Origin: Escherichia coli
GTDB lineage: Bacteria > Pseudomonadota > Gammaproteobacteria > Enterobacterales > Enterobacteriaceae
Reading direction: 5' to 3' (one strand)
Assembly: GCF_003018235.1 (NCBI RefSeq)
Contig: NZ_CP027437.1
Length of the DNA stretch: 64,000 bases
This document shows, piece after piece, positions 605-25,729 of this stretch. Position 1 is the stretch's first letter, and every line of letters starts with the position of its first letter. The notes under the pieces are model-generated. The model was not told the DNA's origin. It worked only from the letters and a program-made list of their open reading frames with translations, and searched no databases. A program made the translations under genes and the position numbers.

Positions 605-791
605 AGTACATCCTTGCAGAATCAGGTAGATGTTTTTCGGCTACTATAACACTACCAAAATAGGCGAACACGTTAGAAATGAGTCAGTTGCTGTGACCGT
701 GGTCATTGCCCGGAAAGGTACAGAAAGCTAAGATGCGATGTTATGGGCCTTAAATATTTGGACAGGCCCACACAGCAATGGATTAATAACA

Positions 792-3700: not shown

Positions 3701-4304
3701 GCTGAAAACCGACATCAACAACCTGAATGATGCGCCGATCTTCCTCGATATCGACGATGAAGTGGTGAGCGTAAAATCGTTGTACGGTGATTACGACACG
3801 CCGCAGGATTTCCTCGAAGCCTTTGACTCGCTGGTGCAACGTTCCCCGAACGCACAGCCGGCATTGCAGGCGGTGATCAATCGCCCGCGCGATCTCACCC
3901 GTAAAGGGCTGGTCGAACTCCAGGAGTGGTTTGACCGCCAGCACTTTGAGGAATCTTCCCTGCGCAAAGCGTGGAAAGAGACGCGTAATGAAGATATTGC
4001 CGCCCGGCTGATTGGTCATATTCGCCGTGCTGCGGTAGGCGATGCGCTGAAACCGTTTGAGGAACGTGTCGATCACGCGCTGACGCGCATCAAGGGCGAA
4101 AACGACTGGAGCAGCGAGCAATTAAGCTGGCTCGATCGTTTAGCGCAGGCGCTGAAAGAGAAAGTGGTGCTCGACGACGATGTCTTCAAAACCGGCAACT
4201 TCCACCGTCGCGGCGGGAAGGCGATGCTGCAAAGAACCTTTGACGATAATCTCGACAACCTGCTCGATAAATTCAGCGATTATATCTGGGACGAGCTGGC
4301 CTGA
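792..4304 (+). CDS. hsdR: Type I restriction enzyme R subunit (HsdR), type IA family
   Basis: ORF 738..4304; likely true start at the MMNKSNFEFLKG methionines (792); DEAD-box helicase motifs (AMATGTGKT, VVDEAH); followed by hsdM and hsdS. Confidence 0.95.
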   Translation: MMNKSNFEFLKGVNDFTYAIACAAENNYPDDPNTTLIKMRMFGEATAKHLGLLLNIPPCENQHDLLRELGKIAFVDDNILSVFHKLRRIGNQAVHEYHNDLDDAQMCLRLGFRLAVWYYRLVTKDYDFPVPVFVLPERGENLYHQEVLTLKQQLEQQAREKAQTQAEVEAQQQKLVALNGYIAILEGKQQETEAQTQARLAALEAQLAEKNAELAKQTEQERKAYHKEITDQAIKRALNLSEEESRFLIDAQLRKAGWQADSKTLRFSKGARPEPGVNKAIAEWPTGKDETGNQGFADYVLFVGLKPIAVVEAKRKNIDVPGKLNESYRYSKCFDNGFLRETLLEHYSPDEVHEAVPEYETSWQDTSGQQRFKIPFCYSTNGREYRAAMKTKSGIWYRDVRDTRNMSKALPEWHRPEELLEMLGSEPQKQNQWFADNPGMSELGLRYYQEDAVRAVEKAIVKGQQEILLAMATGTGKTRTAIAMMFRLIQSQRFKRILFLVDRRSLGEQALGAFEDTRINGDTFNSIFDIKGLTDKFPEDSTKIHVATVQSLVKRTLQSDEPMPVARYDCIVVDEAHRGYILDKEQTEGELQFRSQLDYVSAYRRILDHFDAVKIALTATPALHTVQIFGEPVYRYTYRTAVIDGFLIDQDPPIQITTRNAQEGVYLSKGEQVERISPQGEVINDTLEDDQDFEVADFNRGLVIPAFNRAVCNELTNYLDPTGSQKTLVFCVTNAHADMVVEELRTAFKKKYPQLEHDAIIKITGDADKDARKVQTMITRFNKERLPNIVVTVDLLTTGVDIPSICNIVFLRKVRSRILYEQMKGRATRLCPEVNKTSFKIFDCVDIYSTLESVDTMRPVVVRPKVELQTLVNEITDSETYKITEADGRSFAEHSHEQLVAKLQRIIGLATFNRDRSETIDKQVRRLDELCQDAAGVNFNGFASRLREKGPHWSAEVFNKLPGFIARLEKLKTDINNLNDAPIFLDIDDEVVSVKSLYGDYDTPQDFLEAFDSLVQRSPNAQPALQAVINRPRDLTRKGLVELQEWFDRQHFEESSLRKAWKETRNEDIAARLIGHIRRAAVGDALKPFEERVDHALTRIKGENDWSSEQLSWLDRLAQALKEKVVLDDDVFKTGNFHRRGGKAMLQRTFDDNLDNLLDKFSDYIWDELA

Positions 4305-4505
4305 CACGTATACACTTCATCCTTCAGGCTGCCTCTGCGTTGGCTGCGCTCGTTCACCCCGGTCACGTACTTCTGTACGCTCCCGGGGATTCACTCACTT
4401 GCCGCCTTGATGCAACCTGAATGATTTTGTGTATATTACCCTCGGCAATTTCTTCTTCTACGGCCCCAAACAATGCGGGCCGTTGTTTAATTTACGGAAC
4501 TCACA

Positions 4506-6095
4506 ATGAACAATAACGATCTGGTCGCGAAGCTGTGGAAGCTGTGCGACAACCTGCGCGATGGCGGCGTTTCCTATCAAAACTACGTCAATGAACTCGC
4601 CTCGCTGCTGTTTTTGAAAATGTGTAAAGAGACCGGGCAGGAAGCGGAATACCTGCCGGAAGGTTACCGCTGGGATGACCTGAAATCCCGCATCGGCCAG
4701 GAGCAGTTGCAGTTCTACCGAAAAATGCTCGTGCATTTAGGCGAAGATGACAAAAAGCTGGTACAGGCAGTTTTTCATAATGTTAGTACCACCATCACCG
4801 AGCCGAAACAAATAACCGCACTGGTCAGCAATATGGATTCACTGGACTGGTACAACGGCGCGCACGGTAAGTCGCGCGATGACTTCGGCGATATGTACGA
4901 AGGGCTGCTGCAGAAGAACGCCAACGAAACCAAGTCTGGTGCAGGCCAGTACTTCACCCCGCGTCCGCTGATTAAAACCATTATTCATCTGCTGAAACCG
5001 CAGCCACGTGAAGTGGTACAGGACCCGGCAGCGGGTACGGCGGGCTTTTTGATTGAAGCCGACCGCTACGTTAAGTCGCAGACCAATGATCTGGACGACC
5101 TTGATGGCGACACGCAGGATTTCCAAATCCACCGCGCGTTTATCGGCCTCGAACTGGTGCCCGGCACCCGTCGTCTGGCGCTGATGAACTGCCTGCTGCA
5201 CGATATTGAAGGCAACCTCGACCACGGCGGCGCAATCCGTCTGGGCAACACTCTGGGTAGCGACGGTGAAAACCTGCCGAAGGCGCATATTGTCGCCACT
5301 AACCCGCCGTTTGGCAGCGCCGCAGGCACCAACATTACCCGCACCTTTGTTCACCCGACCAGCAACAAACAGTTGTGCTTTATGCAGCATATTATTGAAA
5401 CGCTGCATCCCGGCGGTCGTGCGGCGGTGGTTGTGCCGGATAACGTGCTGTTTGAAGGCGGCAAAGGCACCGACATTCGTCGTGACCTGATGGATAAGTG
5501 TCATCTGCACACCATTCTGCGTCTGCCGACCGGTATTTTTTACGCTCAGGGCGTGAAGACCAACGTGCTGTTCTTTACCAAAGGGACGGTGGCGAACCCG
5601 AATCAGGATAAGAACTGTACCGATGATGTGTGGGTGTATGACCTGCGTACCAATATGCCGAGTTTCGGCAAGCGCACGCCGTTTACCGACGAGCATTTGC
5701 AGCCGTTTGAGCGCGTGTATGGCGAAGACCCGCACGGTTTAAGCCCGCGTACTGAAGGAGAATGGAGTTTTAACGCCGAAGAGACGGAAGTTGCCGACAG
5801 CGAAGAGAACAAAAATACCGATCAGCATCTTGCTACCAGCCGCTGGCGCAAGTTCAGCCGTGAGTGGATCCGCACCGCGAAATCCGATTCGCTGGATATC
5901 TCCTGGCTGAAAGATAAAGACAGTATTGATGCCGACAACCTGCCGGAGCCGGATGTGTTAGCGGCAGAAGCGATGGGCGAACTGGTACAGGCGCTGTCTG
6001 AACTGGATGCGCTGATGCGTGAACTGGGGGCGAGCGATGAGGCGGATGCGCAGCGCCAGTTGCTGGAAGAAGCATTTGGTGGGGTGAAGGAATGA
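4506..6095 (+). CDS. hsdM: Type I restriction-modification N6-adenine DNA methyltransferase M subunit (HsdM)
   Basis: 529-aa ORF with the NPPF catalytic motif (ATNPPFGSA) and an AdoMet-binding region; stop overlaps the hsdS start (ATGA). Confidence 0.95.
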   Translation: MNNNDLVAKLWKLCDNLRDGGVSYQNYVNELASLLFLKMCKETGQEAEYLPEGYRWDDLKSRIGQEQLQFYRKMLVHLGEDDKKLVQAVFHNVSTTITEPKQITALVSNMDSLDWYNGAHGKSRDDFGDMYEGLLQKNANETKSGAGQYFTPRPLIKTIIHLLKPQPREVVQDPAAGTAGFLIEADRYVKSQTNDLDDLDGDTQDFQIHRAFIGLELVPGTRRLALMNCLLHDIEGNLDHGGAIRLGNTLGSDGENLPKAHIVATNPPFGSAAGTNITRTFVHPTSNKQLCFMQHIIETLHPGGRAAVVVPDNVLFEGGKGTDIRRDLMDKCHLHTILRLPTGIFYAQGVKTNVLFFTKGTVANPNQDKNCTDDVWVYDLRTNMPSFGKRTPFTDEHLQPFERVYGEDPHGLSPRTEGEWSFNAEETEVADSEENKNTDQHLATSRWRKFSREWIRTAKSDSLDISWLKDKDSIDADNLPEPDVLAAEAMGELVQALSELDALMRELGASDEADAQRQLLEEAFGGVKE

Positions 6096-7459
6096 GTGCT
6101 GGGAAATTGCCGGAGGGGTGGGAACAGATTGAAATAGGCGACATTGCTGATGTCATCTCTGGTGGGACACCAAAATCGGGAGTCGCTGAAAATTTTGCAC
6201 CTTCGGGTGAGGGAGTCGCCTGGCTTACGCCTGCCGATTTGAGCGGTTATAAAGAGAAATATATCTCACATGGTGCCAGAGATTTAACTACACTAGGCTA
6301 TTCCTCTTGTTCAGCAAAACTAATGCCCAAAGGCACTATACTTTTTAGTAGCCGGGCACCGATTGGATATGTTGCTATTGCTGCAAATGAGATTGCGACT
6401 AACCAGGGTTTCAAAAGTTTTGCTTTTCCTTCAGACATTTTTCCTGATTATGCATATTACTTTCTCCGCAACATCAGACATATTGCAGAGGAAATGGGCA
6501 CAGGAACAACTTTTAAAGAAATTTCTGGTAGTTCTGCGAAAACATTACCATTTGTTCTTGTACCGTTTGCCGAACAAAAAATCATCGCTGAAAAACTCGA
6601 TACGCTGCTGGCACAGGTAGACAGCACCAAAGCACGTCTTGAGCAAATCCCACAAATCCTGAAACGTTTTCGTCAGGCGGTTCTGGGTGCAGCGGTGAGA
6701 GGAAAACTAACTGAAGACTGGAGAGATAATTCAAGCCTGTCTGGGTGGAGAGAAGGCAAACTTGGGGAGTTTATAAAAAAACCAAGTTACGGAACGTCAT
6801 CTAAGTCTAATAAAGAAGGACTCATTCCTGTATTAAGAATGGGCAATCTTCAGGGAGGAAAGTTGGACTGGACGGATCTAGTCTATACGTCAGATACCAT
6901 AGAAATTGAAAAGTATAAACTTGAGTACAATGATGTATTATTCAATCGTACAAATAGTCCTGAACTTGTCGGGAAAACAGCCATATATAAATCAGAGCAA
7001 CCAGCTATTTATGCAGGTTATTTGATTAGGGTTCAATGTTTACCTGATTTAAACCCTGACTATCTTAACTACCATTTAAATAGCATTTTGGGGAGACAAT
7101 ATTGCTATTCAGTTAAATCTGATGGGGTCAGTCAATCAAATATTAATGCACAGAAATTAATTGCATACCCAATAACTGTTCCCCCCCTTCCCGAACAAGC
7201 TGAAATCGTTCGCCGCGTCGAGCAACTCTTCGCCTACGCCGACACAATAGAAAAACAGGTCAACAACGCCTTAGCCCGCGTCAACAATCTGACGCAATCC
7301 ATCCTGGCAAAAGCGTTCCGTGGTGAACTCACCGCCCAGTGGCGGGCCGAAAACCCGGAATTAATCAGCGGTGAAAACAGCGCCGCCGCGTTGCTGGAGA
7401 AAATCAAAGCTGAACGCGCAGCCAGCGGGGGTAAAAAAGCCTCGCGTAAAAAGTCCTGA
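6092..7459 (+). CDS. hsdS: Type I restriction-modification specificity subunit (HsdS) with two variable target-recognition domains
   Basis: 455-aa ORF; conserved N-terminus MSAGKLPEGW, central block AEQKIIAEKLDTLLAQVDSTKAR and C-terminal block EQAEIVRRVEQLFAYADTIEKQVNNALARVNNLTQSILAKAFRGELTAQWRAEN are typical of type IA HsdS; the two intervening domains are AT-rich and divergent. Confidence 0.93.
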   Translation: MSAGKLPEGWEQIEIGDIADVISGGTPKSGVAENFAPSGEGVAWLTPADLSGYKEKYISHGARDLTTLGYSSCSAKLMPKGTILFSSRAPIGYVAIAANEIATNQGFKSFAFPSDIFPDYAYYFLRNIRHIAEEMGTGTTFKEISGSSAKTLPFVLVPFAEQKIIAEKLDTLLAQVDSTKARLEQIPQILKRFRQAVLGAAVRGKLTEDWRDNSSLSGWREGKLGEFIKKPSYGTSSKSNKEGLIPVLRMGNLQGGKLDWTDLVYTSDTIEIEKYKLEYNDVLFNRTNSPELVGKTAIYKSEQPAIYAGYLIRVQCLPDLNPDYLNYHLNSILGRQYCYSVKSDGVSQSNINAQKLIAYPITVPPLPEQAEIVRRVEQLFAYADTIEKQVNNALARVNNLTQSILAKAFRGELTAQWRAENPELISGENSAAALLEKIKAERAASGGKKASRKKS

Positions 7460-7614: not shown

Positions 7615-7697
7615 TTAGCGCGATGCGGATGTGCGCCAACACACCCGCACCGCTCATCACAATCACTATTTATGGAGAATAGTAATCATGACTGACA
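7615..7697 (-). ncRNA. symR: SymR antisense sRNA overlapping the symE 5' UTR and start codon (approximate boundaries)
   Basis: Position antisense to the symE translation start, matching the known symE/symR arrangement; boundaries not determinable from sequence alone. Confidence 0.4.
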
Positions 7698-8029
7698 CGC
7701 ATTCTATTGCACAACCGTTCGAAGCAGAAGTCTCCCCGGCAAATAACCGTCAATTAACCGTGAGTTATGCGAGTCGCTACCCGGATTACAGCCGTATTCC
7801 CGCCATCACCCTGAAAGGTCAGTGGCTGGAAGCCGCCGGTTTTGCCACTGGCACGGCGATAGATGTCAAAGTGATGGAAGGCTGTATTGTCCTCACCGCC
7901 CAACCCCCCGCCGCCGAAGAGAGCGAACTGATGCAGTCGCTTCGCCAGGTGTGCAAGCTGTCGGCGCGTAAACAAAGGCAGGTGCAGGAGTTTATTGGAG
8001 TGATTGCCGGTAAACAGAAAGTCGCGTAA
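7688..8029 (+). CDS. symE: SymE, SOS-induced toxin-like protein
   Basis: ORF 7631..8029; true start most likely ATG at 7688 ([15 protein letters not shown]...), giving 113 aa; sits between hsdS and mcrB. Confidence 0.85.
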
Positions 8030-8190
8030 CAGCGTTTACTCCCGGTTAACCACCGGGAGCTTTCCACTGACTCAATAGAAACTTTCCCCCTCAGTAAATA
8101 TTTACCTGCCTGATTGTGCAGTAAAAATCTATTGTTTCAGTACGTTGCGAAAGCGATAATAGAGGCTTAGCAATGAGGAAGGCACATCTT

Positions 8191-9570
8191 ATGGAATCAA
8201 TTCAAGCCTGGATTGAAAAATTTATTGAGCAAGCACAGCAACAAAGTTCACAATCCACTAAAGATTATCCAACGTCTTACCGTAACCTGCGAGTAAAAGT
8301 GAGTTTCGGTTATGGCAATTTTACATCTATTCCCTGGTTTGCATTTCTTGGAGAAGGTCAGGAAGTTTCTAACGGTATATATCCCGTTATTCTCTATTAT
8401 AAAGATTTTGATGAGTTGGTTTTGGCTTATGGTATAAGTGACACGAATAAACCACATGCCCAATGGCACTTTTCTTCTGACATACCTAAAACAATCGCAG
8501 AGTATTTCCAGGCAACTTCAGGTGTATATCCTAAAAAATACGGACAGTCCTATTACGCCTGTTCCCAAAAAGTCTCACAGGGTCTTGATTATACCCGGCT
8601 TGCCTCCATGCTGGACAACATAATCAACGACTATAAATTAATATTTAATTCTGGCAAGAGTGTTATTCCACCTATGTCAAAAACTGAATCATACTGTCTG
8701 GAAGATGCGTTAAATGATTTGTTTATCCCTGAAACCACAATAGAGACGATACTCAAACGATTAACCATCAAAAAAAATATTATCCTCCAGGGGCCGCCCG
8801 GCGTTGGAAAAACCTTTGTTGCACGCCGTCTGGCTTACTTGCTGACAGGAGAAAAGGCTCCGCAACGCGTCAATATGGTTCAGTTCCATCAATCTTATAG
8901 CTATGAGGATTTTATACAGGGCTATCGTCCGAATGGCGTCGGCTTCCGACGTAAAGACGGCATATTTTACAATTTTTGTCAGCAAGCTAAAGAGCAGCCA
9001 GAGAAAAAGTATATTTTTATTATAGATGAAATCAATCGTGCCAATCTCAGTAAAGTATTTGGCGAAGTGATGATGTTAATGGAACATGATAAACGAGGTG
9101 AAAACTGGTCTGTTCCCCTAACCTACTCCGAAAACGATGAAGAACGATTCTATGTCCCGGAGAATGTTTATATCATCGGTTTAATGAATACTGCCGATCG
9201 CTCTCTGGCCGTTGTTGACTATGCCCTACGCAGACGATTTTCTTTCATAGATATTGAGCCAGGTTTTGATACACCACAGTTCCGGAATTTTTTACTGAAT
9301 AAAAAAGCAGAACCTTCATTTGTTGAGTCTTTATGCCAAAAAATGAACGAGTTAAACCAGGAAATCAGCAAAGAGGCCACTATCCTTGGGAAAGGATTCC
9401 GCATTGGGCATAGTTACTTCTGCTGTGGGTTGGAAGATGGCACCTCTCCGGATACGCAATGGCTTAATGAAATTGTGATGACGGATATCGCCCCTTTACT
9501 CGAAGAATATTTCTTTGATGACCCCTATAAACAACAGAAATGGACCAACAAATTATTAGGGGACTCATAG
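8191..9570 (+). CDS. mcrB: McrB, GTP-dependent 5-methylcytosine-specific restriction enzyme subunit B (AAA+ GTPase)
   Basis: ORF 8173..9570; start MESIQAWIEKF at 8191 preceded by AGGAAGG; Walker A LQGPPGVGKTF; 459 aa. Confidence 0.93.
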   Translation: MESIQAWIEKFIEQAQQQSSQSTKDYPTSYRNLRVKVSFGYGNFTSIPWFAFLGEGQEVSNGIYPVILYYKDFDELVLAYGISDTNKPHAQWHFSSDIPKTIAEYFQATSGVYPKKYGQSYYACSQKVSQGLDYTRLASMLDNIINDYKLIFNSGKSVIPPMSKTESYCLEDALNDLFIPETTIETILKRLTIKKNIILQGPPGVGKTFVARRLAYLLTGEKAPQRVNMVQFHQSYSYEDFIQGYRPNGVGFRRKDGIFYNFCQQAKEQPEKKYIFIIDEINRANLSKVFGEVMMLMEHDKRGENWSVPLTYSENDEERFYVPENVYIIGLMNTADRSLAVVDYALRRRFSFIDIEPGFDTPQFRNFLLNKKAEPSFVESLCQKMNELNQEISKEATILGKGFRIGHSYFCCGLEDGTSPDTQWLNEIVMTDIAPLLEEYFFDDPYKQQKWTNKLLGDS

Positions 9571-10616
9571 TGGAACAGCCCGTGATACCTGTCCGTAATA
9601 TCTATTACATGCTTACCTATGCATGGGGTTATTTACAGGAAATTAAGCAGGCAAACCTTGAAGCCATACCCGGTAACAATCTTCTTGATATCCTGGGGTA
9701 TGTATTAAATAAAGGGGTTTTACAGCTTTCACGCCGAGGGCTTGAGCTTGATTACAATCCTAATACCGAGATCATTCCTGGCATCAAAGGGCGAATAGAG
9801 TTTGCTAAAACAATACGCGGCTTCCATCTTAATCATGGGAAAACCGTCAGTACTTTTGATATGCTTAATGAAGACACGCTGGCTAACCGAATTATAAAAA
9901 GCACATTAGCCATATTAATTAAGCATGAAAAGTTAAATTCAACTATCAGAGATGAAGCTCGTTCACTTTATAGAAAATTACCGGGCATTAGCACTCTTCA
10001 TTTAACTCCGAAGCATTTCAGCTATCTGAACGGCGGAAAAAATACGCGTTATTATAAATTCGTTATCAGTGTCTGCAAGTTCATCGTCAATAATTCTATT
10101 CCAGGTCAAAACAAAGGACATTATCGTTTCTATGAATTTGAAAGAAATGAAAAAGAGATGTCATTACTTTATCAAAATTTTCTTTTTGAATTTTGCCGTC
10201 GTGAATTACCATCTGTAAATACAACTCGCCCACATTTAAAATGGGATGCATCAAGCATATCGGATCAATCACTTAGCTTGTTACCTCGAATGGAAACTGA
10301 CATCACCATTAACTCATCAGGGAAAATACTTATCGTTGATGCCAAATACTATAAAAGCATTTTTTCACGACGAATGGGTACAGAAAAGTTTCATTCTCAA
10401 AATCTATATCAACTGATGAGTTACTTATGGTCGTTAAAGCCTGAAAATGGCGAAAAAACAGGGGGGTTATTAATATACCCACACGTAGACACCTCAGTGA
10501 AACATCGTTATAAAATTAATGGCTTCGATATTGGCTTGTGTACCGTCAATTTAGGTCAGGAATGGCCGTGTATACATCAAGAATTACTCGACATTTTCGG
10601 TGAATATCTCAAATAA
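9570..10616 (+). CDS. mcrC: McrC, nuclease subunit of the McrBC restriction system
   Basis: ORF 9540..10616; probable GTG start at 9570 (VEQPVIPVRNIYYMLTYAWGYLQ) overlapping the mcrB stop by 1 nt; 348 aa. Confidence 0.9.
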   Translation: MEQPVIPVRNIYYMLTYAWGYLQEIKQANLEAIPGNNLLDILGYVLNKGVLQLSRRGLELDYNPNTEIIPGIKGRIEFAKTIRGFHLNHGKTVSTFDMLNEDTLANRIIKSTLAILIKHEKLNSTIRDEARSLYRKLPGISTLHLTPKHFSYLNGGKNTRYYKFVISVCKFIVNNSIPGQNKGHYRFYEFERNEKEMSLLYQNFLFEFCRRELPSVNTTRPHLKWDASSISDQSLSLLPRMETDITINSSGKILIVDAKYYKSIFSRRMGTEKFHSQNLYQLMSYLWSLKPENGEKTGGLLIYPHVDTSVKHRYKINGFDIGLCTVNLGQEWPCIHQELLDIFGEYLK

Positions 10617-10672: not shown

Positions 10673-13600
10673 TCAGGAGGCGATCACCTCCACCAGCACA
10701 TCCGTTGCCCAACTCTCTTCGCTGTTGGCGACATTCCCTTCCTTGCAGGCCTGAGCCATTTTGACTAACTGGAAAGAAACGTCATCGCGGAAATCAAAGT
10801 AATGCCATTGCGATGCAAAGTTGATGCGCCAGTAGCCCATCCCCTGATCGAAGCGGATCTTCAATACCTGACCATCATCAAAAGTCACCGTCAGTTTACG
10901 ATGGTGAGGGATATCGCGCGGCGAGTCGAACACCGTCAGTTCTACCGGCCTGCCCAGCGCAGCAGCAAACCACTGATCAGCGAAATCCTGAAAATCCGCT
11001 ATGCTCATCCAGTCATGGAAAGGCCGGTTACCGGGGCGATCTTTATCTTTAAATAGCGTATCCAGCGTCACTTCAGCGCCATCGGTCAGCTTTGTTTTTA
11101 GCGGTCTCAAAATTGATCCCAACAACGCCAGCGCAACCGGGTTTTGCAGATAGCGATCGGTATAGTGAACGCCGGTAATTCGCGTGTTATTCATCAGTGA
11201 CTGCGCTTCTTCATGGTCGTTAAACAGCACGTCCCAGAAGCGTTGCCCAAACTGCGACAGTGGTCCATTCAACTGTTTGTGGATCTGAATGTCTTTGACC
11301 CGCTCGACAGCGTTGGCGGCTTTAGCCGGCAGAATAAATTCGTTCAGCTCTACCGTTTTATAGCCGAGACTACGTACCACCAGTTCGTCATTCAGGTGCC
11401 ACTCCGGCCCCGGAATCGTTGCCTGCTGGCTACGAGAGGCCAGCGTCATCACGCGATCGGCAAAGGTGACCTGAGCAACGATCGGTAATTTCAAATCCTG
11501 TTCAACATGGCATAGCCGCACACCCAGCGCAGTAAATTGCGATAGTTCGTGCAACAGGTCCGGGTCATCCACTCCCGCAGGAATAACAAGATCGACCTCG
11601 ACGTTGTCTTTTAGCCGATAGTTCTGAACCGCCGCGCGGAACTGACGTGCGTATAAATCCCACTCATTGGGCGCGCCGGTCATCCACAGGGTGAGCTTTT
11701 CAGCGCCTTCGTTAATCGCCCGGCGAATCGTATCGCCAATGGCGCCAGGGCAGTAGCGGGCATCCGGCAGCGAGAATGTCTCTTCATCCGGTAAACCGAT
11801 GTAATACGTGAAGTCATCGCCAAGCCAGGCCAGCGCCGCTTTGCGATCCAGCAAATCGTGATCGTGGCGAGTCTGGGAATCAAGCAGGCATTCACTACAT
11901 GCAGTCTCACAATGGCGGCAGCCTAACTGTTTCACCATTCCCTGCAATATAGCTTCAATGTGTACCGGTGCGCTGGAGGCAAAACCTGCACCACCGCTGA
12001 TCACATCATAAAGCTGTACGGCTAATACCGATTGCCCATCCTCCAGTCTGACCGGACGTACAGAATAGCCGAGTTCTGCGGCGGAGATACCCAGAACGCC
12101 CGCCAGCGCCTGACGCAGAGCAACCGCCAGAGTCATGGCAACAATCCGCCCCTCCTCTGTGTTATCTGGCAGATACTCGCCGTTTTGCGGTTTGCGCAGA
12201 ATCATTTCAAAGACATCGGTGCGCGCCAGTGCGCCCAGGGTGACGTTCTTCATGAGTGCCGTCGAACCGGGGCAAATCAGACGATGATTCTGGCTGTCGC
12301 GATCCGCTTTACCCGGACGCGGTGGATAGTGAGCTTCCATGCTTTTCGGCGCATCATTTTCATTCAGCATCGACTCAGCACGGCCACAGCTCAGACACAA
12401 TGCATAACCGTGTCCACCTTCCCCCAAACTTTGCTGGAAAACATGCCCATCAGCCCCAGAAGCCATATAACCCATTAGCGGGTTAGGCAACGGTACGGGC
12501 TCTGCTTTAACAAAGACCCACGCGGGGACAACCGGGACGAATTTCATGGTTTCAATATTGTTCGTTACCGGAGCGTGTGCATCGGTGACAAACCCGGCAG
12601 GCTGCAGCACCTGACGGCGATTATCCATGATTATTTTTTCGCCGCAGGCGCTATTGGAGCAAAAGAGCATCCCGGAACTGCTCATCCCCTCTTCATAGCC
12701 AATGGTCCCGCATTTGTGACAGCGCCAGGCGCAATCCAGACGCTGGGCTTCATTGGTATCAGCATTAATGTTGTGCCAGTGCAGTGAGACACCGGCAGAG
12801 CGGAAGACACGGCCATCAAGAATGATCTCTGCTCCCGGTGCATATTCACGAATGGCAACACCGAGGTTACGGGAAGGTAATCCTTTATAACGGGAGACGT
12901 TATCTTCACGGTCCTTTTTATCACGACTTTTTTGCGATTTTTCGCGGATATAATCTTCCATTGTGAAGTTATCAAACGTCACTACATCTGTCGGGAAACC
13001 GTATCCCGGCAAGAAGGTTCTGGCAGCTAGATCGCGCAGCAGATACTCGCCACAGTGCCGTTTCTTCTCCAGCTCTATGCGCTTACGATAAGGCGTTTGC
13101 GGCTGCGACTCACGCTCCTGTGTCACGAGATCGCGATAAACGGAGAGCCACCGCTGCTGCAGGAAGGTGATCGCGTTGATTGTTTTATCCCGCAGATATT
13201 CGGCTCTTGCACCATGCAACGCCGTACCTTTCACCAGCCGTTCCAGCGCCGTGTCGATATCAAGAACAGGGCGTTCCAGCCAGACTTTGAAGCGTTCGCA
13301 TTTTGACTGCCCGTCATCTTCACCGAAAAACCAGAGGCTATCGAGGCTGGTTTTCTCTTTATCGGTTTCGCCAATAACGTTACATAAAAAGTCGGACAGT
13401 AATAATGCATTGACGTGACGTTGCACCAGTCGGGCGGAGTTCATCGCGACCATGGGTGCCGGGATCATGGTTTCAAATGGCCAGAGCGGGTTGGCAAAAA
13501 CCTGCTGGTCGTGTGGGTTACCTTTACATAGGGTGTAAGAGATCGCACGTGATTCTTTACTACGCCCGGCTCGCCCGGCGCGCTGTAAATAGTTGGCCGG

Positions 13601-16600
13601 ATGTGGCGGTACGTTGTTCATTACCACCGCAGTAATGCCCCCGATATCAACCCCCATTTCCATGGTGGTGGAACAGTTGAGAACATTTAGTTGCCCATTC
13701 TTGAACATCTTTTCATAGCTTTGCAGACGTTCTGACGACTGCTGGGCAGAGTGCTCGGCAGTGCGATAGTAGAAACCGCCTTCCACGACACGATCGTTGA
13801 TGTCTGTCCAGACGTTTTCCGACCGCAATTGTGCGATCAGCGGATCATTGCTGACCCAGTCGCGTGCTTTTGCCAGACCCTCTGCGTAGTCTTCCTGTGA
13901 ACGATCCAGCTTCCAGATTTCCGGCATGGTGACTTTCTGCGCGACAAAAGTGTCATATTGCGCCTGGGTAAGATGCTCGAACGAAATATGGGTAGGCAGA
14001 TAAGGGGTTAAGCCTTTAAAAGCCGTATCCAGGATTTTATTGGTTACCGGGCAAATCCAGGCATCCGTGATTAATGAAAAAGTCATATGCTCTTTCGGTA
14101 AATAAAAACGGTTGCCATCGGGTTTCAGTACTGCAAGCGGTCCGGTAAGTTGGGCCCATGCTTCTTTCAGCCATGTATTGATAATATCAATAGTCGCCGT
14201 ATTGACGGTTTTGAATCCAGCCCCCAGCATCAGTAACTTCGCTAAACGATGGGATACGTTGCCATTACGAATTTGAGGCCAGCGTCTGTTCTGATTATCT
14301 TCAGGATCTTTTGATTCCGGGTTACGGACGAATTTTGATGAAAAACGGCTACCGATCCAGTTTTTCAGCTCATCATCCAGCTGTGTGAAGTTGCTCTCAC
14401 GAACGTAATGATCCAGCGTAACTTTGAGAAAATCGCGCCAGTCATCCAGCGTTAATCCTTTTTCCTGCCAGTGCAGAGGGATCTTATGTATTTTCTCCAG
14501 CCCCAGGTAACCAACCTGAACCAGCCCTTGTGTTTCCAGGCTGTTAGTCCGTTTAGGGCGACGCATGAATTCCCGGAATAACAACATTTCCGAAAGCTTT
14601 AGAGGCCCGCCGTTTTCATTAAACACTTCAGGCTTAAGATAATGGTTATATTGCAGAACCGGGCCACGGATATCGGCTCTCTCTTTAAGCTCGTTAACCA
14701 TTTCTGTCCAGGTTCGGGATACCAGAGTAATTGCAGCTTTTCCACCGATTGCAGACTGGTAAGCCTGTTCAAGCTGCTCGGCCTGCGCTTCTGATAATTT
14801 CGCTTGATCCGGCAATCCCCAGCTTCGATATTCTTCTGCCTGCTCACGGGCTTGCTTTACCCTGGTCGCTAATTTTTCCAGATCGGCATTAGCGTTCGGC
14901 GCCGTGGGCGTTTGCGTTCGTTGATGCCAGCTCAGAATTTCGACTACGCTTCCGCGTAAGCGACTACGTTCTGCTTCTTGCTGCATACGCACCGCCATCC
15001 GGGCTGTCCCTTGTCGACTATCCGTAAAGGTAATGAGTCGACGTCCTCGCCCTGGCAACGAATCTGGTCCGACGCCCTCTTTGCCTTCATCACTGGCAAA
15101 GTCCTGACAATACTCAAGAACGGTGGGAACGATATTAGTAACGTAAAATGGCCCACCTAATAGTGCACGCCGGAAGGGCTGTTTCCCGCTCATGCCTCTG
15201 AAGCCACAGCCGCTGGCGCTACAAACCTGTTCAATATCATTAATAATCAGCGGAATGCTGTCATTATTAATAACGCCAATACGGCGCGTCTGACGGTCGA
15301 GGCGTTGTAGGGTATAGCCTGTCTCGCTGGTCTCTCCTGCGGCAATAATCAACGGAGGCTGGAAACCGTTCTCTTTTTCGACTTTTTCCTCTGTAGTGTC
15401 ATGTTCAACAGGTACTTCATCCTGCAAGGAGAACTCATCGCCACCTTTATTTTCCCATTGGACAAGTTTGCCCTTTTTGTCCTGCGCCAGAAGATGAGGC
15501 TCATTACAATCATTACAGAACGCCACTTCGTAGACAGGGCTTCCACAGTCGCAATTTTGTCGCTGGTTCACATACACATAGCCAAAGGGCCAGCCTTTTT
15601 CGAGCGGTGTACCGTGCTTTAATCTGCAATCTTTATCAACACAAGCCCATATTCCCTGGGTATTACGCTGGAAGATATGCGCCCTGACTTTAAGAAATGC
15701 GGGATCCTTTGCATTAGGTTGAGTCCCTGAACAGACATCGATCCAACGCAGTACTTCCTGCTGGCTGTAATGCTGTTTTGTCAGCGCATTTAACCGCTGC
15801 GTCATCTCATCCAGTTTCATTGGATTAGGTTGGCTAACCAACATTTCACGTATGTAACGCGCTTCGGGGGAGTGCGTAAGCGCATAAAAGCGCTCAGGAC
15901 TTATCCCTTTAATTTTATTATCATTTTTATCTTTTAGATCCAGATCAGGTATTTGCTCTATTTCGTCTAACGGAACAGAAACGTTTTTGGATGGTTCCAG
16001 TTCAGGAATCACCCGACTTCCGTCCAGAACATCGATGCGCTCCTGCGGGATACCGGATAATTCAGAGAGAAATTTTTTCAGCTGCTTTTCAGCGTCGCTG
16101 CCGGCAATGGTCGCAGAGGTCGCTACAAAGCGCACGTCATCTGGTGTCACGCCAAACGCTGTCATCACACGACGCAGCTGGAGCGCCAGTTCAGCGGCCT
16201 GCGACCCGACATAGGTATGCGCTTCATCCAGTACAATCCAGCGTAGTGATTTTTGTGCTTTAGATTGCTGGATAATCGGGGCGTCGACCTGGCGAACCAT
16301 CATATATTCCAGCATCGTGCCGTTGGTCACCAGAATCGGCGCAGGTTCTTCACGCATTTTTTCGCGCGAGAGCACCTCATTCGGCCTTTTTGCCTGTTCA
16401 CTTTTTACCGAAGCGTGTAGGTTTTCGGTGTTGCCGTTGTAAAGGCAGTAGCGAATCCCAGTACCAAAACCACGCGTCCAGGCATCCAGACGCTCGCGCT
16501 GTGAATTAATCAAGGCGTTCAATGGATAGAGAAAAAGGGCTCGGACACCAACCAACGGATTGTTGCCATTTTCATGCAGTTCCCGGTAAAGATCTTCCAG

Positions 16601-17017
16601 CACCGGAACCATAAAACATTCCGTTTTACCTGAACCCGTACCACTGGTTACCACCACTGAATGTTTCTTTTCCAGCAAAGCTTTCCAACTGGCTAACTGG
16701 TGTGTAAAAGGCTTCCAGTCAGCACCAAATCGGTACCGGCCATTACTCTGATTATCCAGTGAATCAACCACTGCTTTGCTCAACAATGCGTTGCCTTCCG
16801 TCAGGCTGCGCATCGTGTGATTTGACTCCTTCCATCCAAACATTTGCTGGAATACCGGAGAAGCAAGGAATGAGCCCGGTTTCCCACAATCAGCCCCCAT
16901 TTGTTGCGCGAGATGTTCACGCAGCTGCGGGTTGGTAACGCCCATGATACTGAGCGTTGCTTCAGTTGAACGAGACAACGATTGTTCAATAAGTGACGAA
17001 AAATAGCGTGTAGTCAT
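10673..17017 (-). CDS. Very large DEAD/DEAH-box helicase with C-terminal cysteine-cluster (DUF1998/MrfA-like Zn-ribbon) region; DruE-like (Druantia) defence protein
   Basis: Intact 2114-aa ORF; Walker [17 protein letters not shown] box [11 protein letters not shown] motif, helicase-C motif QRAGRAGR, cysteine clusters (CHKCG...CSNSACG; CLSCG; [11 protein letters not shown]); good RBS AAGGAATAAGG before the ATG; 87 bp downstream of the partner gene. Confidence 0.75.
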
Positions 17018-17104: not shown

Positions 17105-18823
17105 TTACCTCAGGAAAAATACGGCACCGGGTTTACGGTCAAATACAGCTTCAAAAGAAGTATTTCCGCTTGCCACAGCTGCAGCGAAGACGGGTAACCA
17201 GGCCACGGAATAGCGGTGATTTGCGTCAGGATTAATACCAATCACTGGATTTTTTTGTGACATCATCCATTTATACAGACGCTTGCAGCCATATTCAGGC
17301 CAGCGAGCTTCACTGTGCTCACGTAAAAGCTCCTGATACCACCCGTGGACACAAGATTCAGGAATAGACGGAGGGAGATATCCGTTACTTAACCATTTCT
17401 CAATTTCATCGGCATATGTCGGGAACACGAGCCCCAGCCGTTGAAACATATTAGTAACCAGTAATTTCTGGGTTTCCTCCGGTGCACCTTTTTGGCTCAG
17501 GAACAATTTGAAACGCTCAGATGCAGCTTTGATCTCAAAGATGGGGAAAAACTCCCATAGAATAGGGAACTCATTCTCAATACGACTCAGGTACTCTGCT
17601 GACATTTCAAATTTGAAGAGCGACATCGCCAATGCCTGCGGATGCTGCACTAGTGCACGCCATACTTCAAAGGTTGCCAGCGGTAAATAACCAAATTGAT
17701 CGTACAGGCTACGCATAAATTGCCAGCCGGAATGGGCAGGATCGTTAGCCATCTGTCCGAGAACCAGTGTGATGGTATTAACTTCTGCCTGTGGATTAAA
17801 AAGCTGGGTCGCTTTCTGCAATGAGCGGATGTTGCTTTCTTCTACCGGTAACGAAGATTCGCCACGAATGAAGCAGGGGCGAAAAGCCATCTCCTCACCC
17901 GGTTTAGGAACAACCAACCATGGCCCATTTTTGTTAACGATTGAGCTCAACTCATATTCACCGACAGGCACTCCCTCGCTCATTCTTGATGCTAAGGGGA
18001 TGGATTTCCTCTCGGGTTCACTTAACAGCATGATAACGGGGGAAGGAATCTGCCCAGCACGATGGTTCACTGACTGGCTGAGTAATAGTTCTTTTTCATA
18101 ATCATAGCGCAGGCTGTATTTATAGCGACGAATTTGCCAGGCCATGACCACACCTGCCCCCGTAATACGCATCTCAACAACCTGATCAATACCTGCCTCA
18201 AGTGAAATCAGGTTCTCAATATGTTCGCGCAGACTATAGAGATTCAATTCAACAGGACGATCGCTCAACGCCGTATAACACCATTCATGCCATGCCTGTA
18301 ATCCACTAACGGAGCGCAAATACAACTGCAATGTATATTTTGTCGGCTCACCATTTCTGGAGAACAGAAACGCTCTGGAACCCAGCAGATCATGCAGCGT
18401 AATGTTTTTATCCAGAGGACGTCCGTTTACATCAAGAGCGAGACAGCCTTTAGCGGGAAAAGGTAACTCAATGTCGATGGGGTCAGCCGCCAAATTAGGC
18501 AGAACTTGTAATGTAATAAATGCCGGAGGTACCCCTTCCGCTTTAAGTTGTATCTCTGTTCGCCCCTCAGTACGCTTACGTGTAGCCTCCAATGTTTTAT
18601 CTTTAAGTTTTGCTACACAAGGATGCTGTGTGGTGATTAAGATAGTGCCTTCATTTGCGTGCATTCCACCTTTTATCTCAATACTGAAATCAGCAGGCAA
18701 GATACCGATTTTGCGACGCAAGAGCGTTTCATTGTTACTATTACGGATAGAAAGATATTGAGCCCCCAGCATCTCTTGTATATGACATTGCTCAATTGAA
18801 ATTCCGCTCAGGTAACGCGTTAC
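17105..18823 (-). pseudogene. C-terminal fragment of the DruH-like partner gene, separated from its 5' part by IS100
   Basis: The 582-aa ORF 17105..18853 begins with a GTG inside the IS inverted repeat; native sequence starts at 18823; frame is continuous with fragment 20778..21943 once the IS and one GTTAC copy are removed. Confidence 0.75.
18819..18823. repeat. Target-site duplication (GTTAC), left copy
   Basis: Identical 5-bp GTTAC immediately flanks both ends of the 1954-bp element. Confidence 0.75.
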
Positions 18824-20777
<1,954 letters not shown>

Positions 20778-20782
20778 GTTAC
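20778..20782. repeat. Target-site duplication (GTTAC), right copy
   Basis: See left copy. Confidence 0.75.
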
Positions 20783-21943
20783 ATCAATGCTTTGAATATC
20801 CGGTAGTGTAGAAATGACTTTTGGTACACCAATAAATGTTTCATCTGGATGACAAACCCAGCTTGCACGCTTTCCATTTAGAGCAAACCTTCCGATGCTG
20901 ATTTGTTCTCTTCCGGTGCGAATCCGATAAGTTTCATTTGCTGTAACTGTAACGTCCTGACATCCCTTCACAGGTAGTGCTTTTAGTCCTAATACGTTTA
21001 CTGCGCTCGATTGGCCATCAAAACCAGCAACATTGCTATTATCCCGAGGGAGTACAATCAGAACATCGCTGCTTCGCACACTGCAAGAAGCCTGTCCCTG
21101 TAACAGCCATTGATCTGCATCAACGATGAAGGTTAACGGCACCTCACCAATGGCAATTTCACTGTCATCAAGTTTAATGCTCCCAACAATCATCCCTCCA
21201 GCACGAGCCACTAATGACAAACCTGCCGATGGATTTTGCCTGACAAATCTCACTTCGCTTTTACGTAATCGAACTGTTGCCTGTCTGTTTTCCAGGGAAG
21301 CATAGGCTGGCCCAAGGCCAGAGACTTCCTCACCATCTTCACAAATGGCAAGTTCAAAGCGCGTAGTTGACGGCTCGCTTGTTACAGGAAAGGAAACTTC
21401 GTCCGGAAGAGATACTATCACCCTAAGCTCATCTGGATGCTTTTCTGACCAATAGAATTGGCAACGCGTACTCTTATTTTTTTGTAGTCGAGGCTTAGCC
21501 TCTACAGAGGCTGCGCATAGCAGTCCATTCAAAAAATGCGTTCCTGTTTCATCATCTAACGGTATTGGAAACTCGCTTCGCCAGGTAGGGTGAACCTTCT
21601 CAAGCTGTTGTACTGGTTCTTTGTGATTTATTAGGTTGTGAGTAAGTACTAAGGAATTGAGGTTATCAGCCATATGACTGATAAGTTCTACAGAGGTATC
21701 TTCGCTAAAAACAGTTGGCAGCGCTGATTTTTCTATGACAGCTCTTGCCAGCGAAAGGGCAGAAAAACCTGACTGCTTTGCTTGCTCATATTGTCCAAGG
21801 ATCCTGGAGAAAACAGCCAGAAAGCGACTGTCTGATTCTTTGAGTAGCCGGAAAGGTAAACCACCTTCACTGAATAATGTTCCGAGAAAATTGCGTCGTT
21901 CAGATTCATAAAATCGAATTGGGCGCAGCCAGTAATCTTCCAT
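20778..21943 (-). pseudogene. N-terminal fragment of the DruH-like partner gene, interrupted by IS100
   Basis: The 393-aa ORF 20762..21943 ends in a stop supplied by the IS end; the reconstructed junction reads ...TLPDIQSIDV|TRYLSGISIEQ... in frame. Confidence 0.75.
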
Positions 21944-21990
21944 CCCTTTCGGTACGATAGTACCAAGCTCTGTGGCGGTGAATGAAATCC

Positions 21991-22326
21991 CTATTTTTTA
22001 TATATAGGGTCCCACGTCCATCCGCATTGCCGTTCATAATCCCTGCGGTACCACTCAGAGCAAAAAAGAACAAAACAGGCAGCAAAGTCCCTATTACATA
22101 TATTAGATTGTGATTGACCGACCGCACGGAGTAGCTGCGTTAATTGGGTATATTCATCATTGGTTGCATGATATTCATAAAGAGGACGGCCATCCGGTTG
22201 TCTCAACCCTCTAAGATTCACAAAGTTACTTAGCCAGGAAGTACATTTTACCCATGAAATGTATTCTGATTGACCCAAAGCAAGCTCCTTAGAGATAAAA
22301 GATACAAAAACAAAACCCCACAACAC
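21991..22326 (-). other. Open frame immediately upstream of the DruH-like gene; possible frameshifted N-terminal extension, or non-coding
   Basis: 111 codons open with no ATG (GTG start only); ends at TAG inside TATATAAAAAATAGGG; the downstream frame opens 2 codons earlier, so a 1-nt change in the A6 tract would fuse them. Confidence 0.3.
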
Positions 22327-22776
22327 TTCTAATTTGAAAGAAAACTTTTCAAAATATCGTATAATTAATCAGGCGGCAACAACTAATTTTTCATGTCGGT
22401 ACTATAAATTAATTTTAGATAAAAATGATATCAACCATCTATTAATCACAACTCATTTATCACCTGGTTTTATAATTTCAAATGAAAATAAATCTCAAAC
22501 AATCAAAAAGTATGCAGTAGCTAACATTTAACTTTCCAGGATATAAAACAATTAGAGAAACTGCACAATAGCGAATAATGAAAGTTGTAAAGTCAGTCAA
22601 AAAACACAAGCAATCAGTGTGCGTTTTTTGACCGTTATCGACATGAGTTTAAAGAGTTTAGTGAAGAAGATATTCCTGTACACTCCATACCTATTGATGA
22701 ATTGTCTCGGGAAAATTTTTATAACTTAATTTAAAAACATAAAAACGTTTTATTATATATAAATCTATAACCCCCA

Positions 22777-22941
22777 TCACTCCACATCCTCCCTGCGTAA
22801 CCCAATATCCCTCAACCGCTCATCACTCATCTGCTGTAACACTCGTCGGGTCTGCATTTGCCGCCGCCAACGCCTCATCACCTGCCAGAGTTGCACAAGT
22901 CCAATAAACGGTGCTTTAGCTTTGTTTTCGTGAAATTCCAT
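22777..22941 (-). CDS. yjiS: Small DUF1127-family protein YjiS (54 aa)
   Basis: Reverse-complement translation MEFHENKAKAPFIGLVQLWQVMRRWRRQMQTRRVLQQMSDERLRDIGLRREDVE; below the 60-aa cutoff of the ORF track. Confidence 0.7.
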   Translation of the reverse strand: MEFHENKAKAPFIGLVQLWQVMRRWRRQMQTRRVLQQMSDERLRDIGLRREDVE

Positions 22942-23117
22942 CTGCTGCCTCCTCATCTTTCAGAGGCTTCATCATCCGTCTTCTGGCAGTTCACAATACA
23001 GATGCAAATATTAGTTTTATTTAACATACAGACAGGTTAAAACAGCATCTGCATCCGGTTTTTTAGCCTCATCTGTACCGGTTTTTCTCTCTGTATGGTC
23101 CAAATAAGGAACACAGC

Positions 23118-24530
23118 ATGACGCGTTATCAACATCTGGCGACTCTACTTGCCGAGCGGATTGAGCAGGGGCTGTATCGTCACGGGGAGAAATTGCCGTC
23201 GGTGCGCAGCTTAAGTCAGGAGCACGGCGTCAGCATCAGCACCGTGCAGCAGGCGTATCAGACGCTGGAGACGATGAAGCTCATCACCCCACAGCCGCGT
23301 TCGGGTTATTTTGTCGCACAACGTAAAGCCCAGCCGCCAGTACCGCCGATGACGCGCCCGGTGCAGCGCCCGGTGGAAATTACCCAGTGGGATCAGGTGC
23401 TGGATATGCTGGAGGCGCATAGCGACAGTTCCATTGTTCCGTTAAGTAAAAGCACGCCGGATGTCGAAACGCCCAGCCTGAAACCGCTGTGGCGGGAGCT
23501 AAGCCGGGTGGTGCAGCATAATCTGCAAACCGTTCTCGGTTATGACTTGTTAGCCGGTCAGCGAGTGTTGCGAGAGCAGATTGCCCGCCTGATGCTCGAC
23601 AGCGGCTCGGTGGTCACTGCCGATGACATCATCATCACCAGCGGCTGCCATAACTCGATGTCGCTGGCGTTAATGGCGGTGTGTAAACCGGGCGATATTG
23701 TCGCGGTCGAATCCCCCTGTTATTACGGTTCGATGCAGATGCTGCGTGGCATGGGCGTGAAAGTGATTGAAATCCCAACCGATCCAGAAACAGGCATCAG
23801 CGTTGAAGCGCTGGAACTGGCGCTGGAACAGTGGCCGATTAAAGGCATCATTCTGGTGCCAAACTGTAATAATCCGCTGGGATTTATTATGCCGGACGCG
23901 CGCAAACGGGCCGTTCTCTCTCTCGCTCAGCGTCATGATATTGTGATTTTTGAAGATGATGTCTACGGCGAACTGGCAACGGAGTATCCGCGCCCGCGGA
24001 CCATTCATTCCTGGGATATCGACGGGCGAGTGCTGTTGTGCAGCTCATTCAGTAAAAGTATTGCACCTGGCCTGCGCGTGGGTTGGGTCGCACCGGGGCG
24101 TTATCACGATAAACTGATGCATATGAAATACGCCATCAGCAGCTTTAATGTACCGTCCACGCAAATGGCGGCGGCAACGTTTGTGCTGGAAGGTCACTAT
24201 CATCGCCATATCCGGCGGATGCGGCAGATCTATCAGCGCAATTTGGCGCTTTATACCTGCTGGATACGGGAATATTTTCCATGCGAAATCTGTATTACGC
24301 GCCCGAAAGGCGGATTTTTACTGTGGATAGAATTGCCTGAACAGGTCGATATGGTCTGCGTCGCGCGGCAGCTGTACCGCATGAAAATCCAGGTGGCGGC
24401 AGGCTCGATTTTCTCAGCTTCCGGCAAATACCGTAATTGTCTGCGCATCAACTGCGCTTTGCCGCTCAGCGAAACCTATCGCGAAGCACTGAAGCAAATT
24501 GGCGAGGCCGTGTATCGGGCAATGGAATAA
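23118..24530 (+). CDS. yjiR: MocR-type GntR-family transcriptional regulator fused to an aminotransferase-like domain
   Basis: 470 aa; N-terminal GntR HTH (LPSVRSLSQEHGVSISTVQQAY) plus a PLP-fold domain. Confidence 0.88.
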   Translation: MTRYQHLATLLAERIEQGLYRHGEKLPSVRSLSQEHGVSISTVQQAYQTLETMKLITPQPRSGYFVAQRKAQPPVPPMTRPVQRPVEITQWDQVLDMLEAHSDSSIVPLSKSTPDVETPSLKPLWRELSRVVQHNLQTVLGYDLLAGQRVLREQIARLMLDSGSVVTADDIIITSGCHNSMSLALMAVCKPGDIVAVESPCYYGSMQMLRGMGVKVIEIPTDPETGISVEALELALEQWPIKGIILVPNCNNPLGFIMPDARKRAVLSLAQRHDIVIFEDDVYGELATEYPRPRTIHSWDIDGRVLLCSSFSKSIAPGLRVGWVAPGRYHDKLMHMKYAISSFNVPSTQMAAATFVLEGHYHRHIRRMRQIYQRNLALYTCWIREYFPCEICITRPKGGFLLWIELPEQVDMVCVARQLYRMKIQVAAGSIFSASGKYRNCLRINCALPLSETYREALKQIGEAVYRAME

Positions 24531-24772: not shown

Positions 24773-25729
24773 TTAGTACTCGATCCATGGATCACGCTTG
24801 CTTTCAGGCAAGGGCTGATCTAATGCCTGCATTTGCTCTGCCGAAAGTCCGGTATATCGTTGTATCCATTCAGGATCGGCCCCATTCTGCAACAATAATC
24901 GGAGGAGGCTCCGTTCCCCTTCTACTTTCCCTTCTTTCCTGCCCCTCTCCCTTCCCAACAGCCATCCATCATTATGAATTCGCTCTGCAATTGTCATTAT
25001 TCGCTCCCTGTGGTGTGGCATTCGCCTGGTAAGTTCGCTGATAAACGCCTTAAAACGCGCTTCATCGCCAGTCAGTAAAATGTAATTTAACAGCGCAGTT
25101 ATCTGGCTGTCATTAGCACACTCTGTAACCAGTAATACTACCAGTTGGTCGATAAGCCCCATCAGATCGCGCTGGCGAATATGCTTTTGGATCAACTCCA
25201 ACAGGGCGACTCTGCGATGCTGCACAATCTCGTCGTCTGGCACGACAGTGACATCCACCAGCGGGAACGCTGCGCTATAAAGTTTCCGTGCGGTAGTCGG
25301 GTCGGCAAATTCGTCCAGCCAGCACAGGGACCAGGGGTAAGGACTACGGCTACCGTGATAAAACAGCATCGGGATGACCAGCGGTAGCGGCCGGCGTTTA
25401 TCATGCTCGATATGGCGCTGCATCACCGCCATAGAATAGCGCATCAGGCGAAAGGCCATATGAATATCCTCGCGGCTCTGATGTTCAATCACCACATAAA
25501 TATAGCCATCGCCTTCGCGGGTCTTTACCGACCACAGAATATCGGAATGTAGCGCCCGCAATTTTTCATCGACAAAGCTGGCGGATTCCAGTTTTAAGCT
25601 GTCGAGATCGCACAGTTCACGTAAATCTTTAGGTAAGTGGATCTCCATAAAATCCCGCGCGGTGTCAGGGTGCATGAGAAAAGATTTAAATAATGCGTCA
25701 TGCGGCGTGCTGGTCGTGAAGTTTGTCAT
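24773..25729 (-). CDS. rpnD: Rpn-family recombination-promoting nuclease (PD-(D/E)XK, transposase_31-like), apparently intact
   Basis: 318-aa [31 protein letters not shown]..., typical Rpn/YhgA-like N-terminus; position matches yjiP/yjiQ. Confidence 0.8.

Follow-up and report, generated by a model that had tools for sequence, protein, structure and literature searches.

The closest described counterparts of the locus examined here are yjiS of E. coli K-12 and its orthologue in Salmonella Typhimurium. The gene is already known: it has been part of the K-12 annotation for decades, thousands of RefSeq genomes have it annotated, and experimental work on it was published in 2025. In E. coli, a yjiS mutant has an increased level of the pstS transcript and takes up phosphate faster (Remme et al. 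2025, PMC12501420). Binding of YjiS to the sensor kinase PhoR was detected in a bacterial two-hybrid assay, with a signal in one fusion orientation only, and in a Far-Western with purified proteins (PMC12501420). Further, E. coli YjiS restored pstS repression in an Agrobacterium triple DUF1127 mutant, and a model was put forward for the Agrobacterium proteins in which the basic protein attaches to an acidic 'charged region' of PhoR and, via PhoU, favours the phosphatase state (PMC12501420). In Salmonella, YjiS was found to be translated under SPI-2-inducing conditions, as detected by Ribo-seq and western blot, and not in LB (Venturini et al. 2025, PMC11707872). The Salmonella protein is found at the inner membrane, from which high salt releases it, and it pulls down the sensor kinase SsrA (PMC11707872). 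Single substitutions, at arginines or in the DIGL motif, left the Salmonella infection phenotype unchanged (PMC11707872).

We analysed yjiS in a 64-kb stretch of E. coli DNA (the window; Table 1). Read on the minus strand, 22777-22941 translates to MEFHENKAKAPFIGLVQLWQVMRRWRRQMQTRRVLQQMSDERLRDIGLRREDVE, an ATG and 53 further codons, followed by the stop codon TGA. A first-pass annotation had proposed a 54-residue minus-strand gene just upstream of yjiR and had named it yjiS. Both proposals were confirmed, as the ORF is intact and diverges from yjiR across a 176-nt spacer, the RefSeq CDS has the same boundaries, and the K-12 MG1655 orthologue (b4341/NP_418761.1) has the same length of 165 nt and the same 176-nt spacer to its yjiR (b4340). 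The absence of the gene from the ORF track had been attributed purely to a 60-aa minimum. This explanation is correct: the mechanical ORF, counted from the first start codon after a stop, runs from 22777 to 22956, begins five codons before the yjiS ATG, and is absent from the list because its 59 aa are one residue short. The description of yjiS as a missed gene holds for the ORF track only: standard annotation has the gene, and it has already been studied experimentally. A tblastn search within the window found yjiS as a single copy. We conclude with high confidence that 22777-22941 is the protein-coding gene yjiS, that it encodes a very basic, Arg-rich DUF1127 protein of 54 residues beginning at the ATG at 22941, and that it is transcribed from the spacer shared with yjiR.

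Table 1. Features of the yjiS locus and its surroundings, in window coordinates
Feature	Position	Strand	Remarks
hsdRMS (probable)	738-7459		assigned by ORF sizes and position
symE	7631-8029
mcrBC	8173-10616
DEAD/MZB helicase ORF	10673-17017	minus	2,114 aa; DEAD/ResIII, Helicase_C and MrfA Zn-binding (MZB) domains
yjiT	17105-22326		inactivated
IS21-family element in yjiT, IstA	18910-19932
IS21-family element in yjiT, IstB	19929-20711
IS21-family element in yjiT, terminal inverted repeats	near 18819-18851 and 20750-20782
yjiS CDS	22777-22941	minus	54 codons plus TGA; boundaries identical to the RefSeq CDS
Antisense ORF	22858-23040	plus	60 aa, TTG start; over the 5' part of yjiS and the spacer
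Divergent yjiS/yjiR spacer	22942-23117		176 nt; four ATACAGA/TCTGTAY half-sites
Shine-Dalgarno sequence GAGGAGG	22948-22954	minus	6 nt before the ATG at 22941; read from sequence
Upstream in-frame ATG	22954-22956	minus	makes the mechanical ORF 59 aa; not the real start
ATACAGA half-sites	22996-23002 and 23026-23032	plus	repeat search
Proposed sigma-70 promoter for yjiS	23014-23040	minus	TTAACC-15 nt-TAAAAC (K-12: TAAAAG); read from sequence
TCTGTAY half-sites	23072-23078 and 23090-23096		reverse complement of ATACAGA; repeat search
yjiR	23118-24530	plus	470 aa; Pfam GntR and Aminotran_1_2; MocR-type regulator with PLP aminotransferase-like domain
Rpn-family (YhgA-like, PF04754) recombination-promoting nuclease	24773-25729	minus	318 aa, intact

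The product had been described as a DUF1127 protein, and the Pfam search bears this out. PF06568 (DUF1127, now 'YjiS-like') matched YjiS with 49 bits and E = 5e-13 against a gathering cutoff of 23.3, and the match covers residues 18-54 and profile positions 1-37 of 37. The protein has a pI of 11.1, and 10 of its 54 residues are Arg (18.5%, compared with a mean of about 14% for the DUF1127 family; PMC12501420), which places it among the high-Arg small proteins that characterise the family. The C-terminal family motif D-I/V-G-L is represented by DIGL at residues 45-48, with D45, G47, and L48 invariant in a 20-sequence alignment. A search of 5.8 billion proteins showed that homologues exist: it returned 168 matches, mostly of 54 aa, with E-values down to 5.5e-26, from Escherichia, Citrobacter, and Klebsiella. 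No NCBIfam model matched YjiS, and a sequence search of the PDB found no solved structure for the family, the single match at E = 1 being noise.

At the nucleotide level, a megablast search with the 165 nt of yjiS matched about 3,447 of 5,426 complete E. coli genomes. In the same search, about 36% of the complete genomes had no yjiS match at all. Among the matches listed, all 11 that align over essentially the whole 165 nt carry the annotation 'yjiS: DUF1127 domain-containing protein' with the same boundaries. Two E. coli alleles are at least 99% identical to the window gene, and the allele of strain 06-00048 is 100% identical in nucleotide sequence. The protein WP_032320656.1, carried by strains MEI003 and 06-00048, has the sequence of the window YjiS.

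The experiments on the K-12 protein and the Salmonella orthologue make it reasonably probable that YjiS is a peripheral inner-membrane modulator of sensor kinases, with PhoR as its partner in E. coli. According to this model, YjiS would sit peripherally on the inner membrane, on the cytoplasmic side, and would attach to it through a hydrophobic/amphipathic N-terminal helix. There it would bind sensor histidine kinases, which in E. coli would mean PhoR, and binding to PhoR would restrain the Pho regulon, that is, pstS expression and phosphate uptake. By composition, YjiS has a hydrophobic stretch of 12 residues at positions 11-22, followed by an amphipathic Arg-rich segment. Because a stretch of about 12 residues is too short to span the membrane, YjiS is predicted to have no transmembrane segment. 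AlphaFold2, run with the 20-sequence alignment, predicted a single long helix at residues 11-46 with a mean pLDDT of 66.7, which is low confidence. As far as sequence features can indicate, the arginine content, the pI, the hydrophobic and amphipathic stretches, and the predicted helix fit the membrane and kinase picture. For the window allele, PhoR binding is an extrapolation, because four residues differ from K-12 YjiS (K7R, V21A, M22V, and R44K).

The main rival on mechanism is that YjiS is primarily an RNA-binding protein like Rhodobacter CcaF1, and that it acts on sRNA maturation or mRNA stability and not on kinase signalling. CcaF1, which is described in PMC8034643 as binding RNA, has the same Pfam domain as YjiS, and both are Arg-rich (18.5% in YjiS). 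However, the enterobacterial YjiS clade is separate from the alphaproteobacterial proteins, and no bound transcripts were evident when Salmonella YjiS was pulled down (PMC11707872). A 'moonlighting' role has been raised as a possibility in the same study that detected direct binding between YjiS and PhoR with purified proteins (PMC12501420). Further, there is no sRNA cluster downstream of yjiS, where the sequence is strain-variable. With these observations, we consider it unlikely that RNA binding is the main activity of YjiS, and we favour modulation of sensor kinases.

Regulation of yjiS could come from its divergent neighbour. The yjiR product has a GntR HTH followed by a class I/II aminotransferase fold in Pfam, and NCBIfam MocR-like models score under their cutoffs against YjiR. 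The divergent yjiR-yjiS pair is kept in Citrobacter and Klebsiella, with a spacer of 177 nt there compared with 176 nt in the window and K-12, and the outer neighbours of the pair differ in both. Within the spacer, the four half-sites are laid out as -> -> <- <-, and exact ATACAGA occurs in 3 copies in the 176 nt compared with 9 in the whole 64 kb. Citrobacter and Klebsiella share all four half-site blocks, whereas the intervening sequence drifts; the half-site at 23072 reads TCTGTAC in the window and TCTGTAT in Citrobacter. A direct repeat of 17 nt, CATCTG(C/T)A..CCGGTTTT, is present in the spacer as well, at a spacing of 24 nt, and this repeat is likewise conserved in Citrobacter and Klebsiella. 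Among E. coli alleles, mean identity is 97.7% in the spacer compared with 95.4% in the yjiS CDS.

MocR regulators, among them GabR and PdxR, usually have divergent genes as their targets and recognise short repeats, direct or inverted, that occur in arrays. For this reason YjiR is a plausible regulator of yjiS, and the ATACAGA half-sites may be YjiR operators. A more specific proposal is that yjiR and yjiS form a conserved two-gene module, in which YjiR would bind the four half-sites and switch yjiS on or off in response to an amino compound, so that PhoR and the phosphate regulon would respond to a metabolite signal. We offer this proposal tentatively, as one that is possible and that we would not call probable. 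A full-text literature search for yjiR and MocR found no paper testing YjiR control of yjiS, and PMC12501420 and PMC11707872 make no mention of yjiR, or of a GntR or aminotransferase-type regulator, in the control of yjiS. Genomic SELEX located an RpoD site in the yjiR-yjiS spacer, with the hexamers TTAACC-15-TAAAAG assigned to yjiS (PMC3946193). A consensus scan of 22300-23300 detected neither a sigma-70 promoter nor an intrinsic terminator, a result that is uninformative on the real promoter. Because this simple scan found nothing at the proposed site, the yjiS promoter may be weak or activator-dependent.

Judged by comparison of homologues, translation of yjiS starts at the ATG at 22941. 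As a translation signal, GAGGAGG stands 6 nt before this ATG, and its GGAGG core is also conserved in Citrobacter and Klebsiella. For the Salmonella orthologue, translation has been detected by Ribo-seq and western blot (PMC11707872). All 20 aligned homologues, drawn from three genera, begin with the same six residues, MEFHEN, and 54 aa is the usual length of full-length homologues. The alternative is that a 59-aa product starting at the ATG at 22956 is the real form, and this ATG is in frame and found in most E. coli alleles. In K-12 and Klebsiella, however, an in-frame TAG separates it from the annotated ATG, and Citrobacter has no ATG at the upstream position. In addition, the ATG at 22956 has no Shine-Dalgarno sequence of its own and overlaps the one that serves 22941, and the RefSeq and K-12 annotations both place the start at 22941. 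We rejected the 59-aa isoform on the basis of the K-12 and Klebsiella stop, the missing Citrobacter ATG, and the invariant MEFHEN, and consider it highly improbable that such a product is made in place of the 54-aa protein.

The coding comparison included eight sequences: six distinct E. coli alleles, one Citrobacter gene, and one Klebsiella gene. The E. coli loci other than the window number seven in all, and one of these duplicates the window sequence. When the six frames were compared, the annotated yjiS frame alone was stop-free in all eight sequences, and it had the lowest pN/pS of the six, at about 0.2 (0.17-0.22). For yjiS, synonymous sites were saturated relative to both other genera, with pS at 0.76 for Citrobacter and greater than one for Klebsiella, and pN was only 0.16-0.21. 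Among the E. coli alleles pN/pS was 0.09-0.35. In the eight-sequence comparison, variable sites at codon positions 1, 2, and 3 numbered 23, 15, and 40, respectively. A shadow signal, as expected, was seen in the antisense frame that shares the third codon position of yjiS, but this frame is interrupted by stop codons. By these substitution patterns, yjiS is a real coding gene under purifying selection. The view that yjiS is a chance open frame, or that its functional product is an RNA without protein, is effectively refuted: although the gene is only 54 codons long, simple scans gave no consensus promoter or terminator, and a 60-aa ORF lies antisense over part of it, the Pfam score is far beyond the cutoff, synonymous sites are saturated while amino-acid divergence is low in three genera, no other frame is open throughout, the Shine-Dalgarno sequence is conserved, no Rfam match comes near any family threshold, the antisense frames contain stops, and the Salmonella orthologue has been detected by Ribo-seq and western blot (PMC11707872).

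Two further results concern the strand opposite yjiS and non-coding RNA. The antisense ORF was rejected as a gene, as it had no Pfam match and the antisense frames are all interrupted by stop codons within yjiS in the six E. coli alleles. This ORF just reaches the 60-aa cutoff, so an ORF track would show it instead of yjiS, and it is probably spurious. An Rfam scan of 22000-23600 at a permissive E-value gave just sub-threshold matches to archaeal and eukaryotic snoRNA families, which we attribute to chance.

The window covers the restriction ('immigration control') neighbourhood of E. coli, with the gene order yjiT, yjiS, yjiR, rpnD, mdtM. Among seven strains, homology breaks off no more than a few bases from the yjiS stop codon, and mean pairwise identity falls from 95.4% in the CDS to 51% beyond it, in the stretch immediately 3' of the gene (22700-22776). 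The genes downstream of yjiS vary by strain and include yjiT, DUF262/GmrSD genes, penicillin acylase, and symE. Because homology stops at this point and the downstream neighbours differ, yjiS is the last fixed gene before a variable restriction/defence region. The high synonymous divergence of yjiS alleles (pS 0.18 relative to K-12) would fit such an edge position.

Several neighbouring genes differ from their counterparts in other strains. The yjiT gene has been inactivated twice in the window, by the insertion of an IS21-family element and by a frameshift, the latter due to the loss of 1 nt from an A7 run near 21995 in comparison with strain MEI003. The IS21-family insertion at this yjiT site was found in 0 of 5,426 complete E. 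coli genomes, with a best coverage of 74%. The helicase ORF adjoining yjiT is a single open frame here, and its counterparts in K-12 (yjiV) and strain MEI003 are pseudogenes. On the other side of yjiR, the intact Rpn-family gene occupies the place of the K-12 rpnD pseudogene. In E. coli strain PAR, the 3' 93 nt of yjiS alone remain (3001-3093 of its locus) and are annotated as a pseudogene, and yjiR and mdtM are absent between symE and the rpn gene. This remnant indicates that the yjiR-yjiS module can be lost by deletion.

The results bear on how small genes are listed. With a fixed cutoff of 60 aa, real genes drop out of an ORF list: a gene that has been studied experimentally was lost by one codon here, and a meaningless 60-aa antisense ORF was let through. 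YjiS is one of the small proteins that modulate sensor kinases, a class that is growing, and its presence and integrity in this strain are routine information. The sole new thread is the conserved spacer, which resembles an operator array and is a candidate target for the uncharacterised regulator YjiR. If this were true, a protein of 54 aa under YjiR control would connect the phosphate regulon, via PhoR, with a metabolite signal.

In comparison with known systems, the window gene is nearest to K-12 yjiS. The two proteins are both 54 aa and identical at 50 of 54 residues, differing by the four substitutions given above, and the genes have the same start, stop, Shine-Dalgarno sequence, and arrangement with yjiR. 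The nucleotide divergence between them is unusually high for E. coli (pS 0.18), and where K-12 has a TAG between the upstream ATG and the start, the window has CAG at that codon. Salmonella Typhimurium YjiS is also 54 aa, has its DUF1127 domain at the C-terminus, and shares the DIGL motif and, close to the N-terminus, a putative amphipathic helix, but it is tied to SPI-2/SsrAB and macrophage escape (PMC11707872). Because E. coli has no SsrA/B, this role is not directly transferable. The Agrobacterium tumefaciens proteins SDP1-3 have the same Pfam domain and Arg richness; they bind PhoR, and pst expression goes up when they are lost, whereas their similarity to E. coli YjiS is about 24% (PMC12501420). 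SDP1-3 are shorter, with little beyond the domain, and occur as several paralogues per genome in contrast to the single copy in the window. MgrB and SafA are unrelated to YjiS in sequence; they are integral membrane proteins, and their target is the periplasmic domain of the kinase, whereas YjiS is predicted to have no transmembrane segment and leaves the membrane in high salt. The principle would nevertheless be the same, in that an inner-membrane small protein of less than 70 aa tunes a histidine kinase, which for MgrB and SafA is PhoQ.
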